From a virus (lineage: Duplodnaviria; Heunggongvirae; Uroviricota; Caudoviricetes), in IMG/VR virus record IMGVR_UViG_2585427727_000016: 36,583 bases of DNA; one strand, 5' to 3'. How positions within the stretch are numbered: the stretch's first letter is position 1; every line of letters starts with the position of its first letter. Both the position numbers and the translations under genes were made by a program. Below the pieces are notes generated by a model that was given only the letters and a program-made list of their open reading frames with translations, did not search any database and had not been told where the DNA came from. Below, one piece after another: positions 10,318-30,583 of this stretch.

Positions 10318-10881
10318 ATGCTGAATAATAGAGATATGAATATTAATGAACTTAAAGACTGTATTCACTATGAAGTAATCGGTAGCGAGCGTCCTTTCTC
10401 CTGGCGAAAGGCAATTGTTCGCGCAATAAAACATAGAAGACTTCGTTATTTATTTTGGTGGCGCATAGCCAAATACCTTTTTGATAAAGGCGGATACTGT
10501 CGGAAGATTGCGGGGAAAATAGAACGTTTCATTCTTGATAAATATAATGTAACAGTCCCTTTAACTGTAAATATAGGGAAAGGTTTTGATATTTCTTATC
10601 TCAACAGTGTTGTTATCGGTCACAAAGTAACAATCGGTGAAAATTGTTCAATAAAACCGGGGGTAACTATTGGGCTACGTGGTGATTTTAATGATATGGA
10701 TATTGTTATAGGACATAATGTGACCATTGGTTGTAATGCCACCATTCTTGGTGGCAAAGTGCGTATAGGAAACAATGTCACAATAGGTGCTCATGCATTG
10801 GTATTGCATGATATTCCTGATGATTCAACATTCATCACTAAATTTCAGTCTGAAGTTATCTGCTCGTCCTCCCGCACATAA
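10318..10881 (+). CDS. hexapeptide-repeat (left-handed beta-helix) acyl/acetyltransferase; cargo at the Z/fun position
   Basis: repeated [LIV]-G-x-x-x-x hexapeptides ([21 protein letters not shown]...[34 protein letters not shown]); strongly AT-rich compared with flanking phage genes; start codon uncertain. Confidence 0.7.
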
Positions 10882-21875: not shown

Positions 21876-23627
21876 ATGATTCAGGACGCTTTTGTGCGCC
21901 AGCGTGCGCGGCAACTTTACTGGCAGGGTTATCCGCCCGCAGAAATATCACGTCTGATGGGAATAAACCCGAACACGGTTTATGCGTGGAAAAAACGCGA
22001 CCAGTGGGATGAAACGCCACCCGTGCAGCGTGTCACGCAGTCCATCGATGCGCGCCTCATCCAGCTTACTGAAAAACAGAATAAAACAGGCGGTGACTTT
22101 AAGGAAATAGACCTGCTGACCCGGCAGCTTAAAAAGCTGCATGATGGCCAGCCGGATGTGATGGCCGCAGGAAAGAAAGGCCGGGCGAAAAAACTCAAAA
22201 ATCATTTCACGCCGGAACAGATTGCCGCACTGCGGGAAAAAATCATCAGCAGGCTGGAGTGGCATCAGCGGGGCTGGTTTGACTCCCTGACACTTTGCAA
22301 GGAAGCCGGGATACGTAACAGGATGATCCTGAAATCCCGACAGATTGGGGCGACCTGGTATTTTGCACAGGAAGCTCTGCTGATGGCGCTGCGTGACGAT
22401 GTGGCGCAACCTTACCAGCGTAACCAGATTTTTTTGTCTGCGTCGCGTCGTCAGGCGTTCCAGTTCAAAAGCATTATTCAGAAGGCCGCGGCTGAAGTTG
22501 ATGTGGAGCTGAAAGGGGGCGATAAAATCATCCTCTCCAACGGTGCAGAGCTGCATTTTCTCGGCACTTCTGCTGCGTCGGCACAGTCCTATACGGGCAA
22601 TTTTTATTTTGATGAATTTTTCTGGGTCAGTCGCTTTGCTGAACTGCGCAAGGTGGCTGGCGCTATGGCAACCCTCAGCGGACTGCGGCGCACCTACTTC
22701 TCCACGCCATCCACCGAAACGCACGAGGCATACGCCTACTGGAACGGCGACCGCTGGAACGAGAAAAAGGCCACGCATAAACGCCAGCGTTTTTCTGTGG
22801 ACTGGAAAACGCTGCATAACGGGCTTATCTGCCCTGACCGGACGTGGCGGCAAATTGTCACGCTGGAAGATGTGGTTAATCACGGCTGGAAACACACCGA
22901 TATTGACGAAATTCGTGATGAAAACACCGAAGACGAGTTCCGCAATCTCTATATGTGTGAGTTTGTCCGCGAAGGGGAATCGGCATTTAACCTGAATATC
23001 CTGATTGGCTGCGGTGTTGACGGATACGACGACTGGAAAGACTGGAAACCTTTTGCTCCCCGCCCGATGGGGAATCGTCCGGTATGGATTGGGTATGACG
23101 CAAACGGCAGCAGTGGCAACGGCGACAGCGGCGCTGTGTCCGTGGTGGTTCCTCCGGCTGTTCCTGGTGGCCGTTTTCGAACGGTGGAGACGCGACGCGT
23201 TCAGGGGCTGGAGTTTGAAGAACAGGCCAGAGTCATTGAAGAGTTCACGTGTCGCTACAACGTGGAACACATCGGCATTGATGTGACGGGCGGGAACGGG
23301 GAGGCTGTTTATCAGATAGTGAAACGGTTTTTCCCTGCTGCTATTCCGTACACCTTCACGCTGTCATCAAAACGGTCGCTGGTACTGAAAATGCTGCAAA
23401 TAATGCGTGCCGGGCGGTGGGAATACGATCGCGCCGAACGCGAGCTGGTCGCGGCCTTTAACGCCGTGCGTAAGGTGAAAACACCGGGCGGTTTTATCAC
23501 TTACGAAACGGACCGTGCGAGGGGGATCAGCCACGGCGACCTTGCGTGGGCAACCATGCTTGCTGTCATTAACGAACCAATTGGCGGCGAAGGGGAAAAC
23601 GAGCGTTTTACGGTTATGGAGTTCTGA
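21876..23627 (+). CDS. P: terminase large (ATPase) subunit P
   Basis: 583 aa; divergent from O; P2 P-like. Confidence 0.9.
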   Translation: MIQDAFVRQRARQLYWQGYPPAEISRLMGINPNTVYAWKKRDQWDETPPVQRVTQSIDARLIQLTEKQNKTGGDFKEIDLLTRQLKKLHDGQPDVMAAGKKGRAKKLKNHFTPEQIAALREKIISRLEWHQRGWFDSLTLCKEAGIRNRMILKSRQIGATWYFAQEALLMALRDDVAQPYQRNQIFLSASRRQAFQFKSIIQKAAAEVDVELKGGDKIILSNGAELHFLGTSAASAQSYTGNFYFDEFFWVSRFAELRKVAGAMATLSGLRRTYFSTPSTETHEAYAYWNGDRWNEKKATHKRQRFSVDWKTLHNGLICPDRTWRQIVTLEDVVNHGWKHTDIDEIRDENTEDEFRNLYMCEFVREGESAFNLNILIGCGVDGYDDWKDWKPFAPRPMGNRPVWIGYDANGSSGNGDSGAVSVVVPPAVPGGRFRTVETRRVQGLEFEEQARVIEEFTCRYNVEHIGIDVTGGNGEAVYQIVKRFFPAAIPYTFTLSSKRSLVLKMLQIMRAGRWEYDRAERELVAAFNAVRKVKTPGGFITYETDRARGISHGDLAWATMLAVINEPIGGEGENERFTVMEF

Positions 23628-24673
23628 TGAGCAGAAAAAATAAAAAAGTGCGTATGAGTTCACGCATTGATCTCGCTGATGCGCTCAGGAAAGAATCGTC
23701 GCTCAGTGCATTCACATTTGATGGTCCTTATCGCCTGACCGGGCATGATTTGCTGGACAATATGTACTGTGCTGATAACGGGCGGTGGTATGAAACCCCG
23801 GTGGACTGGTACGGTCTGGCAAGAGCTGCCCGGCAAACGTCCTGGCATCAGTCTGCGCTTTACTTTAAGCGCAATGTATTGCTCGGTTGCTATATTCCGC
23901 ACCCGCTGCTTTCCCGGCAGGATTTCTCGGCGCTGGCGCTGGACTGGTTTGTGTTCGGTAACGCATTTCTTGAGCTTCGAAGCAATATGCTCGGCGAACC
24001 GCTTAAATTACGGCACGCCCTGGCGAAATACATGCGACGCGGAAGCGATCTTGAATCATGGTGGTATGTTCAGGATGGCAAGGATGCGTTTCAGTTTCGC
24101 CCTGGCAAAGTGTGCCACCTGATGAATCCGGACATTAACCAGGAAATTTACGGCATGCCGGAATATCTTGGCGCATTACTCTCGGCCAGCCTGTCTCATT
24201 CGGCGGACATGTTCAGAAAACTGTATTACGACAATGGATCCCACGCCGGGTGCATCATCTATATCGGTGCAGCGCAGGTAAACCGCGAAAGCATGGACTC
24301 CCTGAAAGAAACGTTACAGGGTGCGCGTGGTGGTGGTGCGTTTAAAAACGTGCTCATCCATGCGCCCAACGGGGGCAAAGAGGGGGTGCAAATTTTGCCG
24401 TTCCAGCAGATCACCGCAAAAGATGAGTTCATGAATGTTAAGGCGGCATCCCGTGATGATGTGCTGGCTGCGCACCGTGTTCCACCGCAACTGATGGGGG
24501 CGATGCCGGGCGAAAAAAGTGCGTTTGGTGATGTGGAGAAGGCCGCGCGGGTTTATGCAATTAACGAGCTGATGCCCGTTATGGAGGCCATGAAGCACAT
24601 CAATGACTGGCTTGGCGAAGAGGTGATCCGTTTTAACTCTTATGCTCTTCTTGATGAAAAAACAGCCCCGTGA
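23627..24673 (+). CDS. Q: portal protein Q
   Basis: 348 aa; start overlaps P stop; P2 Q-like. Confidence 0.9.
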   Translation: MSRKNKKVRMSSRIDLADALRKESSLSAFTFDGPYRLTGHDLLDNMYCADNGRWYETPVDWYGLARAARQTSWHQSALYFKRNVLLGCYIPHPLLSRQDFSALALDWFVFGNAFLELRSNMLGEPLKLRHALAKYMRRGSDLESWWYVQDGKDAFQFRPGKVCHLMNPDINQEIYGMPEYLGALLSASLSHSADMFRKLYYDNGSHAGCIIYIGAAQVNRESMDSLKETLQGARGGGAFKNVLIHAPNGGKEGVQILPFQQITAKDEFMNVKAASRDDVLAAHRVPPQLMGAMPGEKSAFGDVEKAARVYAINELMPVMEAMKHINDWLGEEVIRFNSYALLDEKTAP

Positions 24674-24690
24674 TTGGGGCTGTCCTTTTT
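24663..24690. terminator. bidirectional intrinsic terminator between Q and the convergent orphan gene
   Basis: CAGCCCC-GTGATT-GGGGCTG hairpin flanked by an A-run upstream and a T-run downstream. Confidence 0.7.
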
Positions 24691-25213
24691 ACCAGAGTTG
24701 AACCATTTTCTGGGTGCCGTCAGGCTTGAGATTATCAATTTCAGAGAGAACGTAATATTGAATGGCTTCACAAACGGTGGTGTATGGTGAATTACCTTCT
24801 TTAAGTGGCACGATATTATTATTAACGCGAACCTGTATTTCATCGTTATACATTGCGATCGAAAGAGGAGTATGCACGAAGGCGACTTCGCCAGGTGTGT
24901 CGTCAACCACTGTCTCAATGCTGAAAATCAGTTTTCGCTCATCATTGCCGCCCCTTGCTTTGGGGGTAGCGGCAGGAATCTGAGATAAAGGCATTCTGCG
25001 AAACCCTTCAGTTGTTTCCAGTCCGCATGAAACGTAATGCTGGCGATTACCGTCGCTATCCGTCCATGTCTGTGATGGCAGCTCCAGAGAGATTTCATAA
25101 GCATCAACAATTCCCTGGGCAATTCGTACAAGTGGGGTCAGGTCTTCATTGCGGCGAAAACTCTCCTTTACCTGATCTCGTTTTTCTCGTAACTGCTTGT
25201 AATTAATGACCAT
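24689..25213 (-). CDS. hypothetical protein, hotspot cargo (174 aa)
   Basis: clean ORF with GGAGG RBS 8 nt before ATG at 25213; own promoter region and terminator; no motif recognised. Confidence 0.6.
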   Translation of the reverse strand: MVINYKQLREKRDQVKESFRRNEDLTPLVRIAQGIVDAYEISLELPSQTWTDSDGNRQHYVSCGLETTEGFRRMPLSQIPAATPKARGGNDERKLIFSIETVVDDTPGEVAFVHTPLSIAMYNDEIQVRVNNNIVPLKEGNSPYTTVCEAIQYYVLSEIDNLKPDGTQKMVQLW

Positions 25214-25312
25214 AAAACAGCCTCCATTGATTTCTTTGCTCGTATTTTGCACTTATGAAGTGTGGTCGGCAAGGTGCCGCATCACTGACGCGCTTCGCTT
25301 GTCTGCTGCTTC

Positions 25313-25341
25313 GCCGGGGCATAAAAAATTTATGCCCCGGC
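25313..25341. promoter_or_regulatory. 29-bp near-perfect palindrome (candidate operator) about 100 bp upstream of the 174-aa gene
   Basis: GCCGGGGCATAAA-AAA-TTTATGCCCCGGC read directly. Confidence 0.4.
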
Positions 25342-25741
25342 TCTCCAGCTCCTGTATCAATCAGATAATTTCACGACGCCTTCCAGTTTATCGCCACCAT
25401 CGACGGTCAGACTCTTACGCAATCCCACTACGTTGACTGTATGTTCTCGCTGCCTCAGTGCGATTTTGACGGCCTTACCTTTCACCCCATCAAATCAAAA
25501 GCCCTCACGCCTTTTTCATGCTCAGCGTGAGAAATATGGCCATTCTGTTGTGTCTCTGCGACATCGTTCAGGGAATGCTATTTACCCCCTGAAACGCGGG
25601 CTGTTCCCCCGTCACCTGCGCGTAGAAAAAACGCGTTTTTTGTGCACGTACGGATCCTTGACGGATCCAGCCGCCACGCGGGCCGGAAGTACAAAAAGTC
25701 GTTCAAAAAAATTGTGCAAACTTGTGCACTATCGTGCAAAC

Positions 25742-25766
25742 AAAAAAAAGCGCCTTATCGGCGCTT
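25742..25766 (-). terminator. intrinsic terminator after the 89-aa gene
   Basis: minus-strand hairpin GCGCC-GATAA-GGCGC followed by a run of 8 U. Confidence 0.7.
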
Positions 25767-25774
25767 CAAAAATA

Positions 25775-26044
25775 TCAATTGTTGCTGTGTATTAATCGCC
25801 AACCACGAACATATGCTTCATAAGCATCTCTGTGCCTTACAGTTCCAGCCTGGCTAAACGGAATGTTAGCTAAAACTAAATCATTCTGAGCCATAGCGCG
25901 TCCTTCAAGCGCATCTTTTATGCCTAGCTCAAAAGCACAGGCAGCGCATTTGTGCCGACCTTCTTGTCCTTGATATTCAGGGAGAGACAGAAATGTTGGG
26001 TTATAACGATGAGGGTTCTTGCAAATACCTGTTTTAGCCCGCAC
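25775..26044 (-). CDS. hypothetical protein, hotspot cargo (89 aa, GTG start)
   Basis: ORF with GAGGT RBS before GTG at 26044 and its own terminator; single CAAC motif; function unknown. Confidence 0.45.
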   Translation of the reverse strand: MRAKTGICKNPHRYNPTFLSLPEYQGQEGRHKCAACAFELGIKDALEGRAMAQNDLVLANIPFSQAGTVRHRDAYEAYVRGWRLIHSNN

Positions 26045-26174
26045 TTTATTTACCTCATAGGAAAAATATGCGTGCCTTTACAGAGGTGCGTGTAAGCAAT
26101 AAAATATACGACGCACATTTTGATTTACTTCGGAAGGCACGCATATCAGGTTAAGTGAGTCCGACCGAGTTCTA

Positions 26175-26207
26175 CGCCCCAATAGTTGCTGCTATTGGGG
26201 CGTTTTG
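26175..26207 (+). terminator. strong plus-strand intrinsic terminator with no annotated plus-strand gene upstream
   Basis: 11-bp GC-rich stem CGCCCCAATAG-TTGCTG-CTATTGGGGCG followed by TTTT. Confidence 0.6.
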
Positions 26208-26408
26208 CATGGACAATGCCGCGCAATTATCTTGTCGCTCACAATGCGAACGATCTTACAAAAAGGCACATTACTGTCAAGATAATTGATCGTTTTAATC
26301 GATAGATAATAGACAATCTATTTGTTTAACAGATCGATTATTGAAGTAAGTGCGCCAAATGGAATGATACTGTTTCTATAAATGTGAGCATTTTTCGCGC
26401 AGATGCTT

Positions 26409-26720
26409 TTACTCAGGAAATAACGCCCGGATATTCCCAGCCATCTGGCTGGTTATCTTAGCCACTGGTGCAGACTGTGCTTCAAACTTTTTTGAGCTGA
26501 TTTGTGTCACAGGTAACATCTCATCATCAGCCCATGCGGCCAGTCGGTAAGCCTCTGCCGGATTCGTCTTCAGAAGTGCCAGCCCGGCCAGAAAAGCCAC
26601 GCGTTGGCCGCTTTTGCGGGCTTCTGGTGTAAGGCTGTCCAGCCAGGCGCATGCTTCTCCTTCGTTCTTGACGGCAGCTGGCTTCAGATAGAAACTTATT
26701 CTTCTGGTTGGTGTCGTCAT
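26409..26720 (-). CDS. parR: ParR/StbB-like centromere-binding adaptor
   Basis: 103 aa; RISFYLKP...LDSLTPEARKSGQRVAFLAGLAL resembles the ParR N-terminal ribbon-helix-helix region as I remember it; AAGGAG RBS; 4 nt after the parM stop. Confidence 0.65.
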   Translation of the reverse strand: MTTPTRRISFYLKPAAVKNEGEACAWLDSLTPEARKSGQRVAFLAGLALLKTNPAEAYRLAAWADDEMLPVTQISSKKFEAQSAPVAKITSQMAGNIRALFPE

Positions 26721-26724
26721 TGGT

Positions 26725-27684
26725 TTACTCCTTGTTCATTGCGTACAGCCCATTAACCAGAGCAAAATGTGGCACCCCGTCCGTGATGAAAGTCGCATTA
26801 ACTCCGCAGGCTTCGCGGATAGCGGGTGCCACAATCTCCGCCCCTCCACCGACAACCATCACCCGCCCGTAACCGGAAAAACCCGCCAGCGCGCGGATCA
26901 CTCGTTGTTTCAGTGTCTCCTCCTTTTCACGAATAACCGCCATCAGGCTGTTGTAATGCGCGTCATTGTGAATGTGCTGGCGCAGCCAGGCTTCATCGTG
27001 ACGGTGCTCAATAATGGTATTGGCGATGTGGTGACTGGTACGCATACCGTTAGTGGCCATCACCGACAGCACGGCATCAGCCATCAGGGAAACGCCTACG
27101 TGTGGATCGCAAAACACCTGGCTGATACCTGCCAGCTGCCCCTGAACCTTTGCCACATCCAGCGTGGTTCCGCCCAAATCCACAATCAGCAGGGATTCAA
27201 ACGGACTCATGTCAGCCAGTGCCTTAAAGCCAGCCGGAATGGATTCAGGCATAACCCGCACGTTACGGATAGTGAATGCTTCGCCGTTCTGGTACTCCAC
27301 CGGGCGCATAACGTTCGCTTTTTTGCGGTTGATGTTGGCTATGTCCGGCTGTGCGTTTGTGTCGAAATACTCGCTCAGTGGCAGGGTGACAACCACATCC
27401 ACCTCCTGTGGCGTGATGCCTGATTTGACCAGCGCGTGATGAATGGCAATGACATTCACATCACTGTACTGGTATTGCGTGTCGGTCGTCTGGACAAAGC
27501 GATCGCTGACCGGATCAAAACCATAGCGCACGCCATCAAGCATGTAGTTCGCGGGCTGCGTGCCACCGAACGGCGCAGACCATTCCGACTTGAAGCTGTT
27601 CGGGCTGATGGCGTTGCGGCGTTCGCCGTTCTCAGTCCATGCCAGCTTGATGTTGGTGGAGCCGTCGTCGATACAAATTTTCAT
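26725..27684 (-). CDS. parM: ParM/StbA-family actin-like ATPase
   Basis: 319 aa; MKICIDDGSTNIKLAW...ISPNSFKSEW and YSDVNVIAIHHALVKSGI closely match the ParM N-terminal phosphate-binding motifs I remember from plasmid R1. Confidence 0.8.
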   Translation of the reverse strand: MKICIDDGSTNIKLAWTENGERRNAISPNSFKSEWSAPFGGTQPANYMLDGVRYGFDPVSDRFVQTTDTQYQYSDVNVIAIHHALVKSGITPQEVDVVVTLPLSEYFDTNAQPDIANINRKKANVMRPVEYQNGEAFTIRNVRVMPESIPAGFKALADMSPFESLLIVDLGGTTLDVAKVQGQLAGISQVFCDPHVGVSLMADAVLSVMATNGMRTSHHIANTIIEHRHDEAWLRQHIHNDAHYNSLMAVIREKEETLKQRVIRALAGFSGYGRVMVVGGGAEIVAPAIREACGVNATFITDGVPHFALVNGLYAMNKE

Positions 27685-27713: not shown

Positions 27714-27827
27714 CGTTTACGGGATTCTGAAATCCCGTTTTTGCCTGTTTTTTGCGCGCTTCATATATCGCTGCGCGTTTTTTGCTCATTTACGGGATTC
27801 GTGAGTCCCGTTTCTGTCTGTTTTTTG
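27714..27827. repeat. two tandem hairpin-containing direct repeats of about 40 bp (candidate centromere or terminator-like elements)
   Basis: 27714..27754 and 27787..27827, each ACGGGA(TT)-loop-(AA)TCCCGT followed by T-rich CTGTTTTTTG; first copy intergenic, second inside the 3' end of gene A. Confidence 0.6.
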
Positions 27828-30583
27828 TTTCCACTGGTCAGGCCACCCTGCAGCAGGTCTGCTTTGCGGCTGGCGCGTTCAGTGGTTTCACTGATTCTCT
27901 GTGCGTGCTCTGCGTCGCGGATGGCGCGCAGCATGTCAGAAAGCACGGTAACGGGTGTTTTCATGGTGTTCTGATCCTGCTGAAGTGCGGATGCCAGGCG
28001 TGCGGCGGCTTCGGGGTCTGATGCCCCCAGCTGTGCCAGATAGCTGGCGACCGGGTTATGGCGGATCTCCGTGCTGCTTACGCCGTGATTACGGCTCAGG
28101 TGCTGCCAGAGCTGCGTGATTCGGCTGTCCGTGCGGGTATCCGGTTTGCGTACAATTTCATATCCCTGCGGTGCAATGATGCTGCCGTCAACGTACAGGC
28201 TGCCGCCCCGTAGCAGGTGCTGCGTCTGCTGTTCACCGATATGCAGGCCGAGAGATTCGGCAGACTCCCGCCATTCTTTAGCGAGTAATTCGTGGTTATC
28301 AGGCAAAGGCCGCTGCTGTTTGCGGCTCTGTGTCCAGCTCTGCATTTCATCACTGCTGTTTTTTGCCTGTTTGTCACGAAGCGAACGCATCAGCGCCCGG
28401 CGTTCGTGCCGTTTCAGTGAGCGCATCCATTCGTTCACTTCAACGCCGTCAGGAAGCTGCGGCCACGGTGCTGGCCGTTCTTTCGACTGTTCTGTCCCGC
28501 TGTTGCCTGTTTCCTGTACACGGGGACAGTTATTGCCACGAGTCCAAGGGGCGGCAGGGCCGCCCTGAAGGTCAAAACCATTTTCGCGGGCGCTGTCTTC
28601 CGCTTCCGGTTTACGTCTTACCAGCTTCCAGTTATCCGGATGTGTGCACACACGGGAAGACTCCCCGATGAGTGGTGACCAGATCCCGTAAATCTGTACG
28701 CTCTGTTCGCCGTAATCGTTCAGCTCATCTGCGAGGTCGTAGGCGGTGCGAATCAGGTAGTCTTTGCGTGGAACAAGTACGCCGCCCTGTTTTTCAATGT
28801 AGGAGGCAAAACACCCGGCATCAGCGGCAGCGAGCACTGCATCCATTGCGTCATCCTTCAGCTGTTGCGGGCCTTCCGGGTTGCGTGCCATCTGGCTGGC
28901 AAGGCGGCGCAGTTCACGCCACACCTGACGGGAGGGGATGCCAAAGAACTGGAACTGGCGGACCCGGTGAAGGCGCGCCCAGCCGATGGCGCGCTCCACG
29001 CTCTCGGCCATTGATTTTCCGGTTTCGTGGTCAACGCGTGGCTTGCCCGTTTTCGGGTCGATACCATCCACGGCGCGGCTGTCCAGGTTCTTTCCGATGT
29101 AGGTGGCGATGTAGCTGGTCGGTGTGCCTTTTGAGCCGTCGACGTACTCTGCCTTAAAGCGTGGGGTAATATCATCACCCAGCTCGTGACGATCTTCCTG
29201 AATGGCAATATCGCGGGTGTGGGACACAATGGTGTCGATTTCTTCCGGATGAGCAAAGACCATCATATGCCAGTGCACGGTGCCGTCATGGTGAGGCTCC
29301 ACCGTGCGGATGCCATACCAGCGCAGGCCGTCGCGGTTCAGTTTCTTGCGGACCGCCGCAAAAAACGAGTTAACCAGGTAATCGCTGGAGTCGCGCATAG
29401 TGGCCCCGTTCCATTTGGGATTCGGATGACCGTTCTCCGTTGTTGCGTGGTATTTTGACGGGCAGGTGACAGTCAGAAACACCGCTCTGTCGCCACGGGC
29501 TTCGGCCAGAAGTTCCAGCCCCTTCATGGTGGCCATCATTTCTGCCTTACGGTGAACCGGGTTACTTACTCCCGCGTAATACACTGTCTCAAGATCAATC
29601 GTGAACCCGTCTTCGTTTTCCAGCATGAAACTTTTCAGGAAATCGCGTGTTTTCTCGCGCTGTGCGCGAAACTCGCTTAACGCATCCTGGCTCAGATAGG
29701 GCGATGTTTTTCTGGAAACCAGACAGGCGGCGCGGAGTTGTTCTTCTCTCCACTCGCAACGTAACAGCCACAGTTTGCGTTTCCACCATTCCGTACAGGT
29801 CAGGCGAAGGATTGCGCCCGGCAGCAGCTCCGTGTCTGGTTCGTTCCTCCGGCCTTTGTCTGTTGTCAGTGCGTCATAATGCGGAGGCATGGCGTGCAGG
29901 TGTAACGCCATGCGGGCCAGCATCTGATACGCCTTCAGCGTTACATCCATGGTCAGCTCGCCATCAGTCGCACCAAAGCCATCGCAGAGTTTTTCGAAGG
30001 TGCTGCTGAACATCGCCGCCGTCATGGTGGCCAGCGTCTGTATCTGGTGTTTGTTGAGCTGCGGCAGGTAAAGCAAATCGTCCAGGCGTTCGCGTCCGGC
30101 AAGGGAGCGATAACCCGGTGTCAGCCAGTGTCCGTCAGTGCGATCCAGACGTTCGAATATTTTGCGCAGGGTTCCGCGTGCATAGCGTTCCGCCTGCCAG
30201 CTCTTTTTGCCTTTCCGGCGATCAGCTTCCTGTTTTTTGCGCAGGAAGGAGAGGTGGCGAATAAGCGGATCGCGCAGATAGGACGGCAGCAGGCGCAGCG
30301 AGGCCATGGCTTCATCCACCGCGCCGCGTGCCTGTTTTCTGGCGTCTCCTGCCAGTGTGATGGTTTTGTCCTGTTTTTCCTGTGCGTCCAGGCTTTTATT
30401 AATCAGGTTGCCCAGCGGCGTGGCGGAGAACGCCGCATCAGCCATTTCCTGGCGGCGCTCGTTCTCTACCCGGTAGGCACCCAGCCAGGAGGAAAGCGCG
30501 GATTCAGGAGCGGGGATCCCCGTTCCTTCACGCCCCACTGCGTGGCGCGGTTGTTGCCAGTCCCTGATGTACTCTGCCGTCAT
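27761..30583 (-). CDS. A: replication initiation protein A (rolling-circle HUH endonuclease)
   Basis: 940 aa; HUH-like motif (VHWHMMVF) and catalytic Tyr motif (YIATYIGK) typical of P2-family gpA. Confidence 0.9.
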   Translation of the reverse strand: MTAEYIRDWQQPRHAVGREGTGIPAPESALSSWLGAYRVENERRQEMADAAFSATPLGNLINKSLDAQEKQDKTITLAGDARKQARGAVDEAMASLRLLPSYLRDPLIRHLSFLRKKQEADRRKGKKSWQAERYARGTLRKIFERLDRTDGHWLTPGYRSLAGRERLDDLLYLPQLNKHQIQTLATMTAAMFSSTFEKLCDGFGATDGELTMDVTLKAYQMLARMALHLHAMPPHYDALTTDKGRRNEPDTELLPGAILRLTCTEWWKRKLWLLRCEWREEQLRAACLVSRKTSPYLSQDALSEFRAQREKTRDFLKSFMLENEDGFTIDLETVYYAGVSNPVHRKAEMMATMKGLELLAEARGDRAVFLTVTCPSKYHATTENGHPNPKWNGATMRDSSDYLVNSFFAAVRKKLNRDGLRWYGIRTVEPHHDGTVHWHMMVFAHPEEIDTIVSHTRDIAIQEDRHELGDDITPRFKAEYVDGSKGTPTSYIATYIGKNLDSRAVDGIDPKTGKPRVDHETGKSMAESVERAIGWARLHRVRQFQFFGIPSRQVWRELRRLASQMARNPEGPQQLKDDAMDAVLAAADAGCFASYIEKQGGVLVPRKDYLIRTAYDLADELNDYGEQSVQIYGIWSPLIGESSRVCTHPDNWKLVRRKPEAEDSARENGFDLQGGPAAPWTRGNNCPRVQETGNSGTEQSKERPAPWPQLPDGVEVNEWMRSLKRHERRALMRSLRDKQAKNSSDEMQSWTQSRKQQRPLPDNHELLAKEWRESAESLGLHIGEQQTQHLLRGGSLYVDGSIIAPQGYEIVRKPDTRTDSRITQLWQHLSRNHGVSSTEIRHNPVASYLAQLGASDPEAAARLASALQQDQNTMKTPVTVLSDMLRAIRDAEHAQRISETTERASRKADLLQGGLTSGNKKQTETGLTNPVNEQKTRSDI

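Follow-up and report, generated by a model that had tools for sequence, protein, structure and literature searches.

The interval between the genes gpA and gpQ of P2-like phages is the P2 defence hotspot (Rousset et al. 2022). About a third of the hotspot systems which had been cloned proved to be antiviral, six of eight unknown loci of the P4 hotspot were protective, and 15-32% of the unknown P2 proteins were predicted to be antiviral, the published base rate for an antiviral role of unknown P2 hotspot genes being roughly 15-35%. In P2 itself the stretch between Q and the cohesive end site (cos) holds only the terminator tQ, and the non-essential prophage genes old and tin lie beyond cos, at the right end. 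Tin, a single protein for which Pfam has no matching domain, blocks T-even phages. The subject of the present analysis is ORF174, an open reading frame (ORF) of 174 amino acids in a stretch of 36,583 nucleotides (IMG/VR record IMGVR_UViG_2585427727_000016), which is called the window here and is a P2-family prophage of E. coli (genus Xuanwuvirus, P88-like). As tin and old do, ORF174 lies within the gpA-gpQ interval, directly next to gpQ as a first-pass annotation of the window had said, but it is located on the Q side of cos and not to the right of it. The exact protein is contained in Table S5 of Rousset et al. 2022 as "hypothetical" and is absent from the table of systems evaluated for defence. 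ORF174 is the sole cargo of a horizontally mobile, self-contained, selected and dispensable single-gene moron.

Besides Tin and Old three further systems are close enough to be compared. The site between the left cohesive end and Q (cosL-Q) has been described as a general hotspot for foreign genes, and in phage phiCTX, also of the P2 family, it carries the ctx moron, which is convergent with Q, has its own -35 and -10 sequences and terminators, and shares with ORF174 the layout of promoter (a candidate one in the case of ORF174), single gene and terminator. Its product is a 286 amino acid cytotoxin from a Pseudomonas host, and ORF174 differs from it in sequence (hhalign probability 0.3%, no similarity) and in host genus. 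Tai proteins such as TaiEcA of phi80 are likewise single small proteins encoded at prophage moron sites, and they are missed by DefenseFinder and PADLOC. They are made constitutively in the lysogen from genes transcribed against the late operon, and an interaction with a phage structural protein has been proposed by their authors. A paired counter-defence gene was not seen for ORF174, which is a difference from Tai. The moron gene for gp15 of HK97, a membrane protein which acts in superinfection exclusion, sits in the late tail operon, and some homologues of ORF174 in E217-like prophages are also found among tail genes. ORF174 is a soluble protein in contrast to gp15, the two being compared by description and not by sequence.

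The boundaries of the ORF174 element were obtained by alignment with Xuanwuvirus relatives which lack the gene. P88, 520873 and 503458 align with the window without a break as far as position 24648 and then again from 25276-25277, and only 14 nt of these relatives are replaced by 628 nt in the window prophage. The moron cassette thus delimited (24649-25276) consists of a new 3' end of the portal gene, a terminator, ORF174, its Shine-Dalgarno sequence and a promoter region, with 63 bp of DNA upstream of ORF174. When the flanking 1.2 kb was used as a query, the match in P88, 520873, 503458 and others began some 64 bp from the start of the query and adjoined the portal gene. The C-terminus of the portal protein was rewritten by the cassette, reading DEKTAP instead of the DIQPTS of the relatives, and at the right junction part of the former 3' end of the portal gene, with its stop codon, survives on the plus strand (25277-25287, CATCACTGA versus CATCCTGA in the relatives). 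The GC content of the cassette is 45% as compared to 52-54% in the flanks, and at third codon positions 43% as compared to 58-60%. The lysogenic-conversion genes of P2 are likewise recorded as AT-richer in the title of a paper on them. As the first-pass annotation had proposed, the gene is monocistronic, ORF174 being the only cargo of the whole 628-bp unit.

A terminator of its own had also been claimed for the gene, and this was borne out. A hairpin at 24662-24683 forms on either strand, with free energies of -19.6 and -21.8 kcal/mol and T runs on both sides. It lies 5 nt past the stop codon of ORF174, overlaps the stop codon of the portal gene and is a good bidirectional intrinsic terminator common to ORF174 and the portal (P-Q) operon. 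The claim of an own promoter stood only in part. A consensus promoter scan upstream of ORF174 yielded nothing above threshold, and the best candidate for a sigma-70 promoter, on the minus strand at 25244-25272, matches the consensus in 8 of 12 positions (TTGCCG at 25272-25267, 17 nt, CAAAAT at 25249-25244). In Salmonella alleles with 60% protein identity the two hexamers and their distance of 17 nt are unchanged, while the spacer and the surroundings have diverged. Because of this conservation of hexamers and spacing alongside a diverged spacer, there is moderate evidence that the candidate may be a weak constitutive promoter. A site of the type TGT-N12-ACA for an Ogr-type late activator was not seen by eye upstream of ORF174, and a search against Rfam gave nothing relevant. 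With its presence or absence between collinear relatives, its own terminator and a base composition unlike that of the flanks, the cassette as read from its sequence fits the definition of a moron, the promoter being only a candidate.

The coordinates of the gene in the first-pass annotation were exact. The coding sequence runs from 24689 to 25213 on the minus strand with the ATG at 25213, and the same coding sequence is found in RefSeq as WP_027662232.1, "hypothetical protein". By direct reading of the sequence a Shine-Dalgarno motif GGAGG is located 7 nt before the ATG (25221-25225, minus strand), and it is retained as GGAG in all alleles compared. An upstream GTG at 25252, which would yield a form of 187 amino acids, could be ruled out as the start, all homologues beginning with MVINY or MxITY. 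The ratio of nonsynonymous to synonymous substitution rates (dN/dS) was 0.08, 0.22 and 0.09 in comparison with alleles of 97%, 84% and 62% protein identity, respectively, and the gene is under purifying selection. These ratios, together with a match to the hidden Markov model (HMM) of phrog_5091 with an E value of 7e-66 (residues 1-168 on profile positions 1-164 of 164), exclude a chance ORF. A few frameshifted or truncated alleles (P0011-P0018) would be compatible with a spurious or decaying ORF, but this explanation is extremely improbable in view of the low dN/dS, more than 600 intact member sequences, 397 of 397 genomic copies matching at least 80% of the cassette length, and a family whose conservation extends to members of 22% identity and whose predicted fold is consistent.

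ORF174 had been described as an orphan, and this has to be given up. An exhaustive HMM profile search of 1.8 billion representatives retrieved 78 related clusters (clustered at 50% identity), mostly of 155-175 amino acids and 22-32% identical to ORF174, and all of 43 homologues tested fall in PHROG 5091 as well. Word-seeded searches had found relatives in E. coli and Salmonella only, and a scan of species representatives a single Salmonella locus. The named sources are all Enterobacterales, comprising Salmonella, Morganella, Providencia, Xenorhabdus, Edwardsiella and an insect symbiont. PHROG 5091 is a family without assigned function, structure or literature. ORF174 itself is already catalogued as hypothetical, and a literature search with the ORF174 accessions and the PHROG identifier gave no paper mentioning ORF174.

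The surroundings of the family members differ from one phage type to the next. Salmonella P2-like prophages without ParMR carry homologues of 60% identity in the same place beside the portal gene, one such cassette (L018) also having its own terminator, and a Morganella P2-like prophage has a homologue of about 24% identity in this position. In lambdoid prophages the homologue is located between antiterminator Q and holin. At one of these loci (L003) a tR'-like terminator precedes the gene, which has a promoter-like site before it and a terminator after it. One Edwardsiella member is flanked by the lysis genes and by terminase, and those of E217-like prophages in Providencia and Xenorhabdus separate the tail chaperone gene from the gene for the tape measure protein. 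Homologues at these other moron sites are 22-27% identical to ORF174 and 40-53% identical among themselves across phage types. A conserved partner gene was not found across the P2-like, lambdoid, Edwardsiella and E217-like contexts, and the gene therefore behaves as a single-gene, horizontally moving unit.

In 5426 complete E. coli genomes the cassette was present in 397, invariably beside the portal gene, and an uninterrupted empty junction was observed in 764. Carriers include ST131, O111 and O145 strains. The remaining hotspot content varies among them, consisting of DUF4760 plus a hypothetical protein, of an XF1762-family gene, or of nothing. ORF174 is dispensable for the phage. A non-essential helper of the lytic cycle, modulating for instance assembly, packaging or the timing of lysis, might be expected to adjoin morphogenesis, lysis or packaging genes, as members of the family always do, and to stand on the late-gene strand, as they do outside the P2-like phages. 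The gene has also been retained beside the portal gene in three divergent P2-like lineages. On the other hand its direction in P2-like phages is opposite to that of the late operon, terminators flank it in the lambdoid locus, and its location changes between phage types. The site is empty in 764 genomes, and the gene is missing from the sister phage P88, an induced coliphage according to the abstract which describes it. A lytic helper is therefore rather improbable, and the least probable of three alternatives to be weighed seriously.

The protein has a mass of 19.8 kDa and a pI of 5.0 and is predicted to be soluble, as no hydrophobic segment, transmembrane segment or signal peptide was predicted. 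An AlphaFold2 model calculated from 77 sequences (predicted local distance difference test score, pLDDT, 80; predicted template modelling score 0.69) is of the alpha+beta type, with two helices forming a hairpin at the N-terminus, a sheet whose strands are mostly antiparallel, and a helix at the C-terminus. Conservation is strongest at Y39, S42, L43, L45, W50, D52, G55, Y60, V61, F97, T101, D104 and D105. That no motif could be recognised in the protein, as noted in the first-pass annotation, still holds after scans of ORF174 against Pfam, NCBIfam and PADLOC, which gave nothing significant, as did Pfam and PADLOC scans of the 43 homologues. A known catalytic motif or an enzyme-like fold was not found in ORF174. 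Sequence matches in the PDB to designed helical-repeat proteins (E value 2.7e-7) turned out to be an artefact, being sums of weak repeats each with an independent E value above 2, and they were gone when the family profile was used.

Weak fold matches were obtained to non-enzymatic protein-binding modules, namely the FP domain of PI31/Fbxo7, Imm52, the colicin M immunity protein, type III secretion chaperones and AcrIIA11. Matches of this kind count in favour of the protein-binding mode of phage exclusion proposed below. An alternative is an inhibitor of the counter-defence or immunity type, which would bind and neutralise an effector of host defence, a toxin of bacterial origin (a colicin or an effector of contact-dependent inhibition or type VI secretion) or a satellite factor, and thus protect phage or lysogen. 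A small, soluble, acidic protein without recognisable catalytic motif would suit such a role, as would the spread among unrelated phage types, which is known from anti-defence genes, and the lytic expression expected for the lambdoid and E217-like homologues from their position on the late-operon strand. All fold scores are however below the level which indicates homology, an adjacent Aca-like regulator is missing, and the gene does not lie in an early region. In P2-like phages it is found at the left genome end behind a candidate weak promoter of the constitutive type instead of an early promoter. An inhibitor is unlikely on balance, although no other alternative to phage exclusion appears as probable. 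A capping-protein-like fold match prompted the further idea that ORF174 modulates the actin-like filament of the neighbouring ParM. For the F-actin capping protein, neither a robust fold match nor co-occurrence with ParM was found. Homologues occur without ParM at the Salmonella, Morganella, lambdoid and E217-like loci, ParMR phages without ORF174 are common, and this idea was rejected as very improbable indeed.

A lysogenic-conversion factor unrelated to phages, conferring a host fitness or virulence trait as ctx does in phiCTX, is suggested by the identical layout of ctx, convergent with Q, at a site which serves as a general hotspot for extra genes, and by the frequency of the cassette in ST131, O111 and O145 strains. 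The predicted cytoplasmic location of ORF174, which has no secretion signal, speaks against this explanation, as do the missing similarity to CTX and the very different lifestyles of the hosts (Xenorhabdus, Morganella, Edwardsiella and an insect symbiont). Such a factor is unlikely too, ranking below an inhibitor and above a lytic helper.

The reading which is favoured here sees ORF174 as a lysogenic-conversion moron which excludes other phages by protein binding. It would be transcribed in the lysogen from its own weak constitutive sigma-70 promoter, and the protein would act stoichiometrically by binding to a protein target. Stoichiometric binding seems most likely because neither a recognisable catalytic motif nor an enzyme-like fold nor a partner gene was found. 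The most probable target would be a component of a superinfecting phage, leading to an exclusion of the Tin or Tai type from which the lysogen benefits. Exclusion is ranked first because of the hotspot location, the favourable base rates, and the precedents of Tin and Tai for non-enzymatic defence by morons. Even so, its probability is somewhat short of even, and with a base rate of roughly 15-35% defence is a reasonable leading guess, not a finding. The proposal of the first-pass annotation that the gene is a single-gene defence candidate is thus upheld as far as a self-contained presence/absence cassette in the hotspot of Rousset et al. 2022 is concerned.

Several results weigh against phage exclusion. 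PADLOC-DB v2 has no family for ORF174, and among the 43 homologues only isolated matches with E values above 0.009 were obtained. Comparison with hhalign gave a probability of 0.4% and no similarity for P2 Tin, and of 0.06% for gp52 of phi80 (204 amino acids), which we take to be TaiEcA (orf63) from its position, strand and size. The best-known cargo of the cosL-Q site is the toxin ctx and not a defence gene, the promoter on which expression in the lysogen would depend was not picked up by the consensus scan, and the gene-wide dN/dS is without the signature of an arms race. Finally, the lambdoid and E217-like homologues are co-oriented with the late operons. Expression in lytic growth is therefore to be expected for them too, which fits a phage-helping function equally well. 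With P2 Orf30 and phi80 gp49 ORF174 also had no similarity in hhalign.

A wider proposal, which is doubtful as a whole, would make PHROG 5091 a new family of non-enzymatic, single-protein factors directed against phages or satellites and binding a conserved phage protein. Its minimal cassette of promoter, gene and terminator would move among P2-like, lambdoid and E217-like temperate phages of Enterobacterales and is present in roughly 7% of the complete E. coli genomes, ST131 among them. If antiviral, ORF174 would be a very small single-gene system without enzymatic domain, a type missed by domain-based discovery tools, in a cassette which is widespread in clinically important E. coli lineages. 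If not, it is one more uncharacterised moron, and a clean example of cargo exchange at cosL-Q and between unrelated phage architectures. Natural isogenic phages with an empty site (P88 and 520873) and the exact 628-bp boundaries allow a simple experimental comparison.

The assignment of ORF174 to one side of cos depends on the gene order and on the ends of a related record. The terminase gene gpP (21876-23627) is followed by the portal gene gpQ (23627-24673, plus strand), the last residues of which, DEKTAP, stem from the cassette. ORF174 is convergent with gpQ, and about 1.2 kb of mostly non-coding DNA, ParR/ParM and gpA (27761-30583) lie beyond it. The P2 cos sequence has no match in the window. 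In Xuanwuvirus P884B11, deposited as a linear record, the two termini meet at what corresponds to window position 25693|25694. The approximate cos cleavage region can accordingly be placed at 25675-25693, and ORF174 would lie between Q and cos. We infer from this that it occupies the cosL-Q sub-site and not the old/tin side of cos.

Some further features of the surroundings were observed. The portal protein WP_000087814.1 is 100% identical in carriers (loci L011-L013) in spite of 29 synonymous differences between their portal genes. Among these carriers the portal gene has a dS of 0.136 and a dN of 0, a constraint far stronger than that on ORF174. The conserved segment from Q to cos contains a perfect 13-bp inverted repeat (GCCGGGGCATAAA/TTTATGCCCCGGC) at 25313-25341 with a free energy of -31.6 kcal/mol and no flanking T tract. 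The repeat is also present in the gene-less relatives, with one mismatch, and could serve as a binding site for a protein or as a terminator of unusual form. In the same segment a GTG-initiated ORF of 42 amino acids (25357-25485, minus strand) is annotated as a hypothetical protein in several relatives (e.g., HYP18_gp01). It matches no family, and it is doubtful whether it is a coding sequence. Directly to the right of the cos end deduced above there are three tandem TTGTGCA(A/C) motifs at 25708-25741. The motif is also found near cos in a Salmonella P2-like prophage (L018, 5528-5543) and in P884B11 (right end of NC_049391), and the repeats are a candidate for a terminase-binding, cosB-like element.

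The only other plausible gene in the part of the hotspot from cos to ParR is an ORF of 89 amino acids at 25775-26044 on the minus strand, which contains cysteines (HKCAACAFELG) and belongs to phrog_3941 (function unknown), with no match in Pfam or PADLOC. The region from 25694 to 26408 is AT-rich (41% GC) and mostly non-coding. It contains perfect inverted repeats at 26066-26078/26134-26146 and 26174-26203, and two promoter-like sites matching in 10 of 12 positions were noted (26280-26253 on the minus strand and 26077-26105 on the plus strand). A small RNA or the parC centromere of the ParMR system might be located in this region. Adjacent to it, at 26409-27684 on the minus strand, is a complete ParM/ParR module (StbA, Plasmid_stab_B) in what is a chromosomally integrated P2-like prophage, and a ParMR partition module is found in about a quarter of P2-like phages (Rousset et al. 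2022). At a distance from the hotspot, between the tail cluster and the tail-fibre assembly gene, a gene for a hexapeptide-repeat transferase-like protein (10318-10881, plus strand, phrog_2154) has a GC content of 37%. Its locus looks like an equivalent of the second, Z/fun hotspot, and the gene is probably another moron, the product of which, as a guess, modifies a surface polysaccharide.
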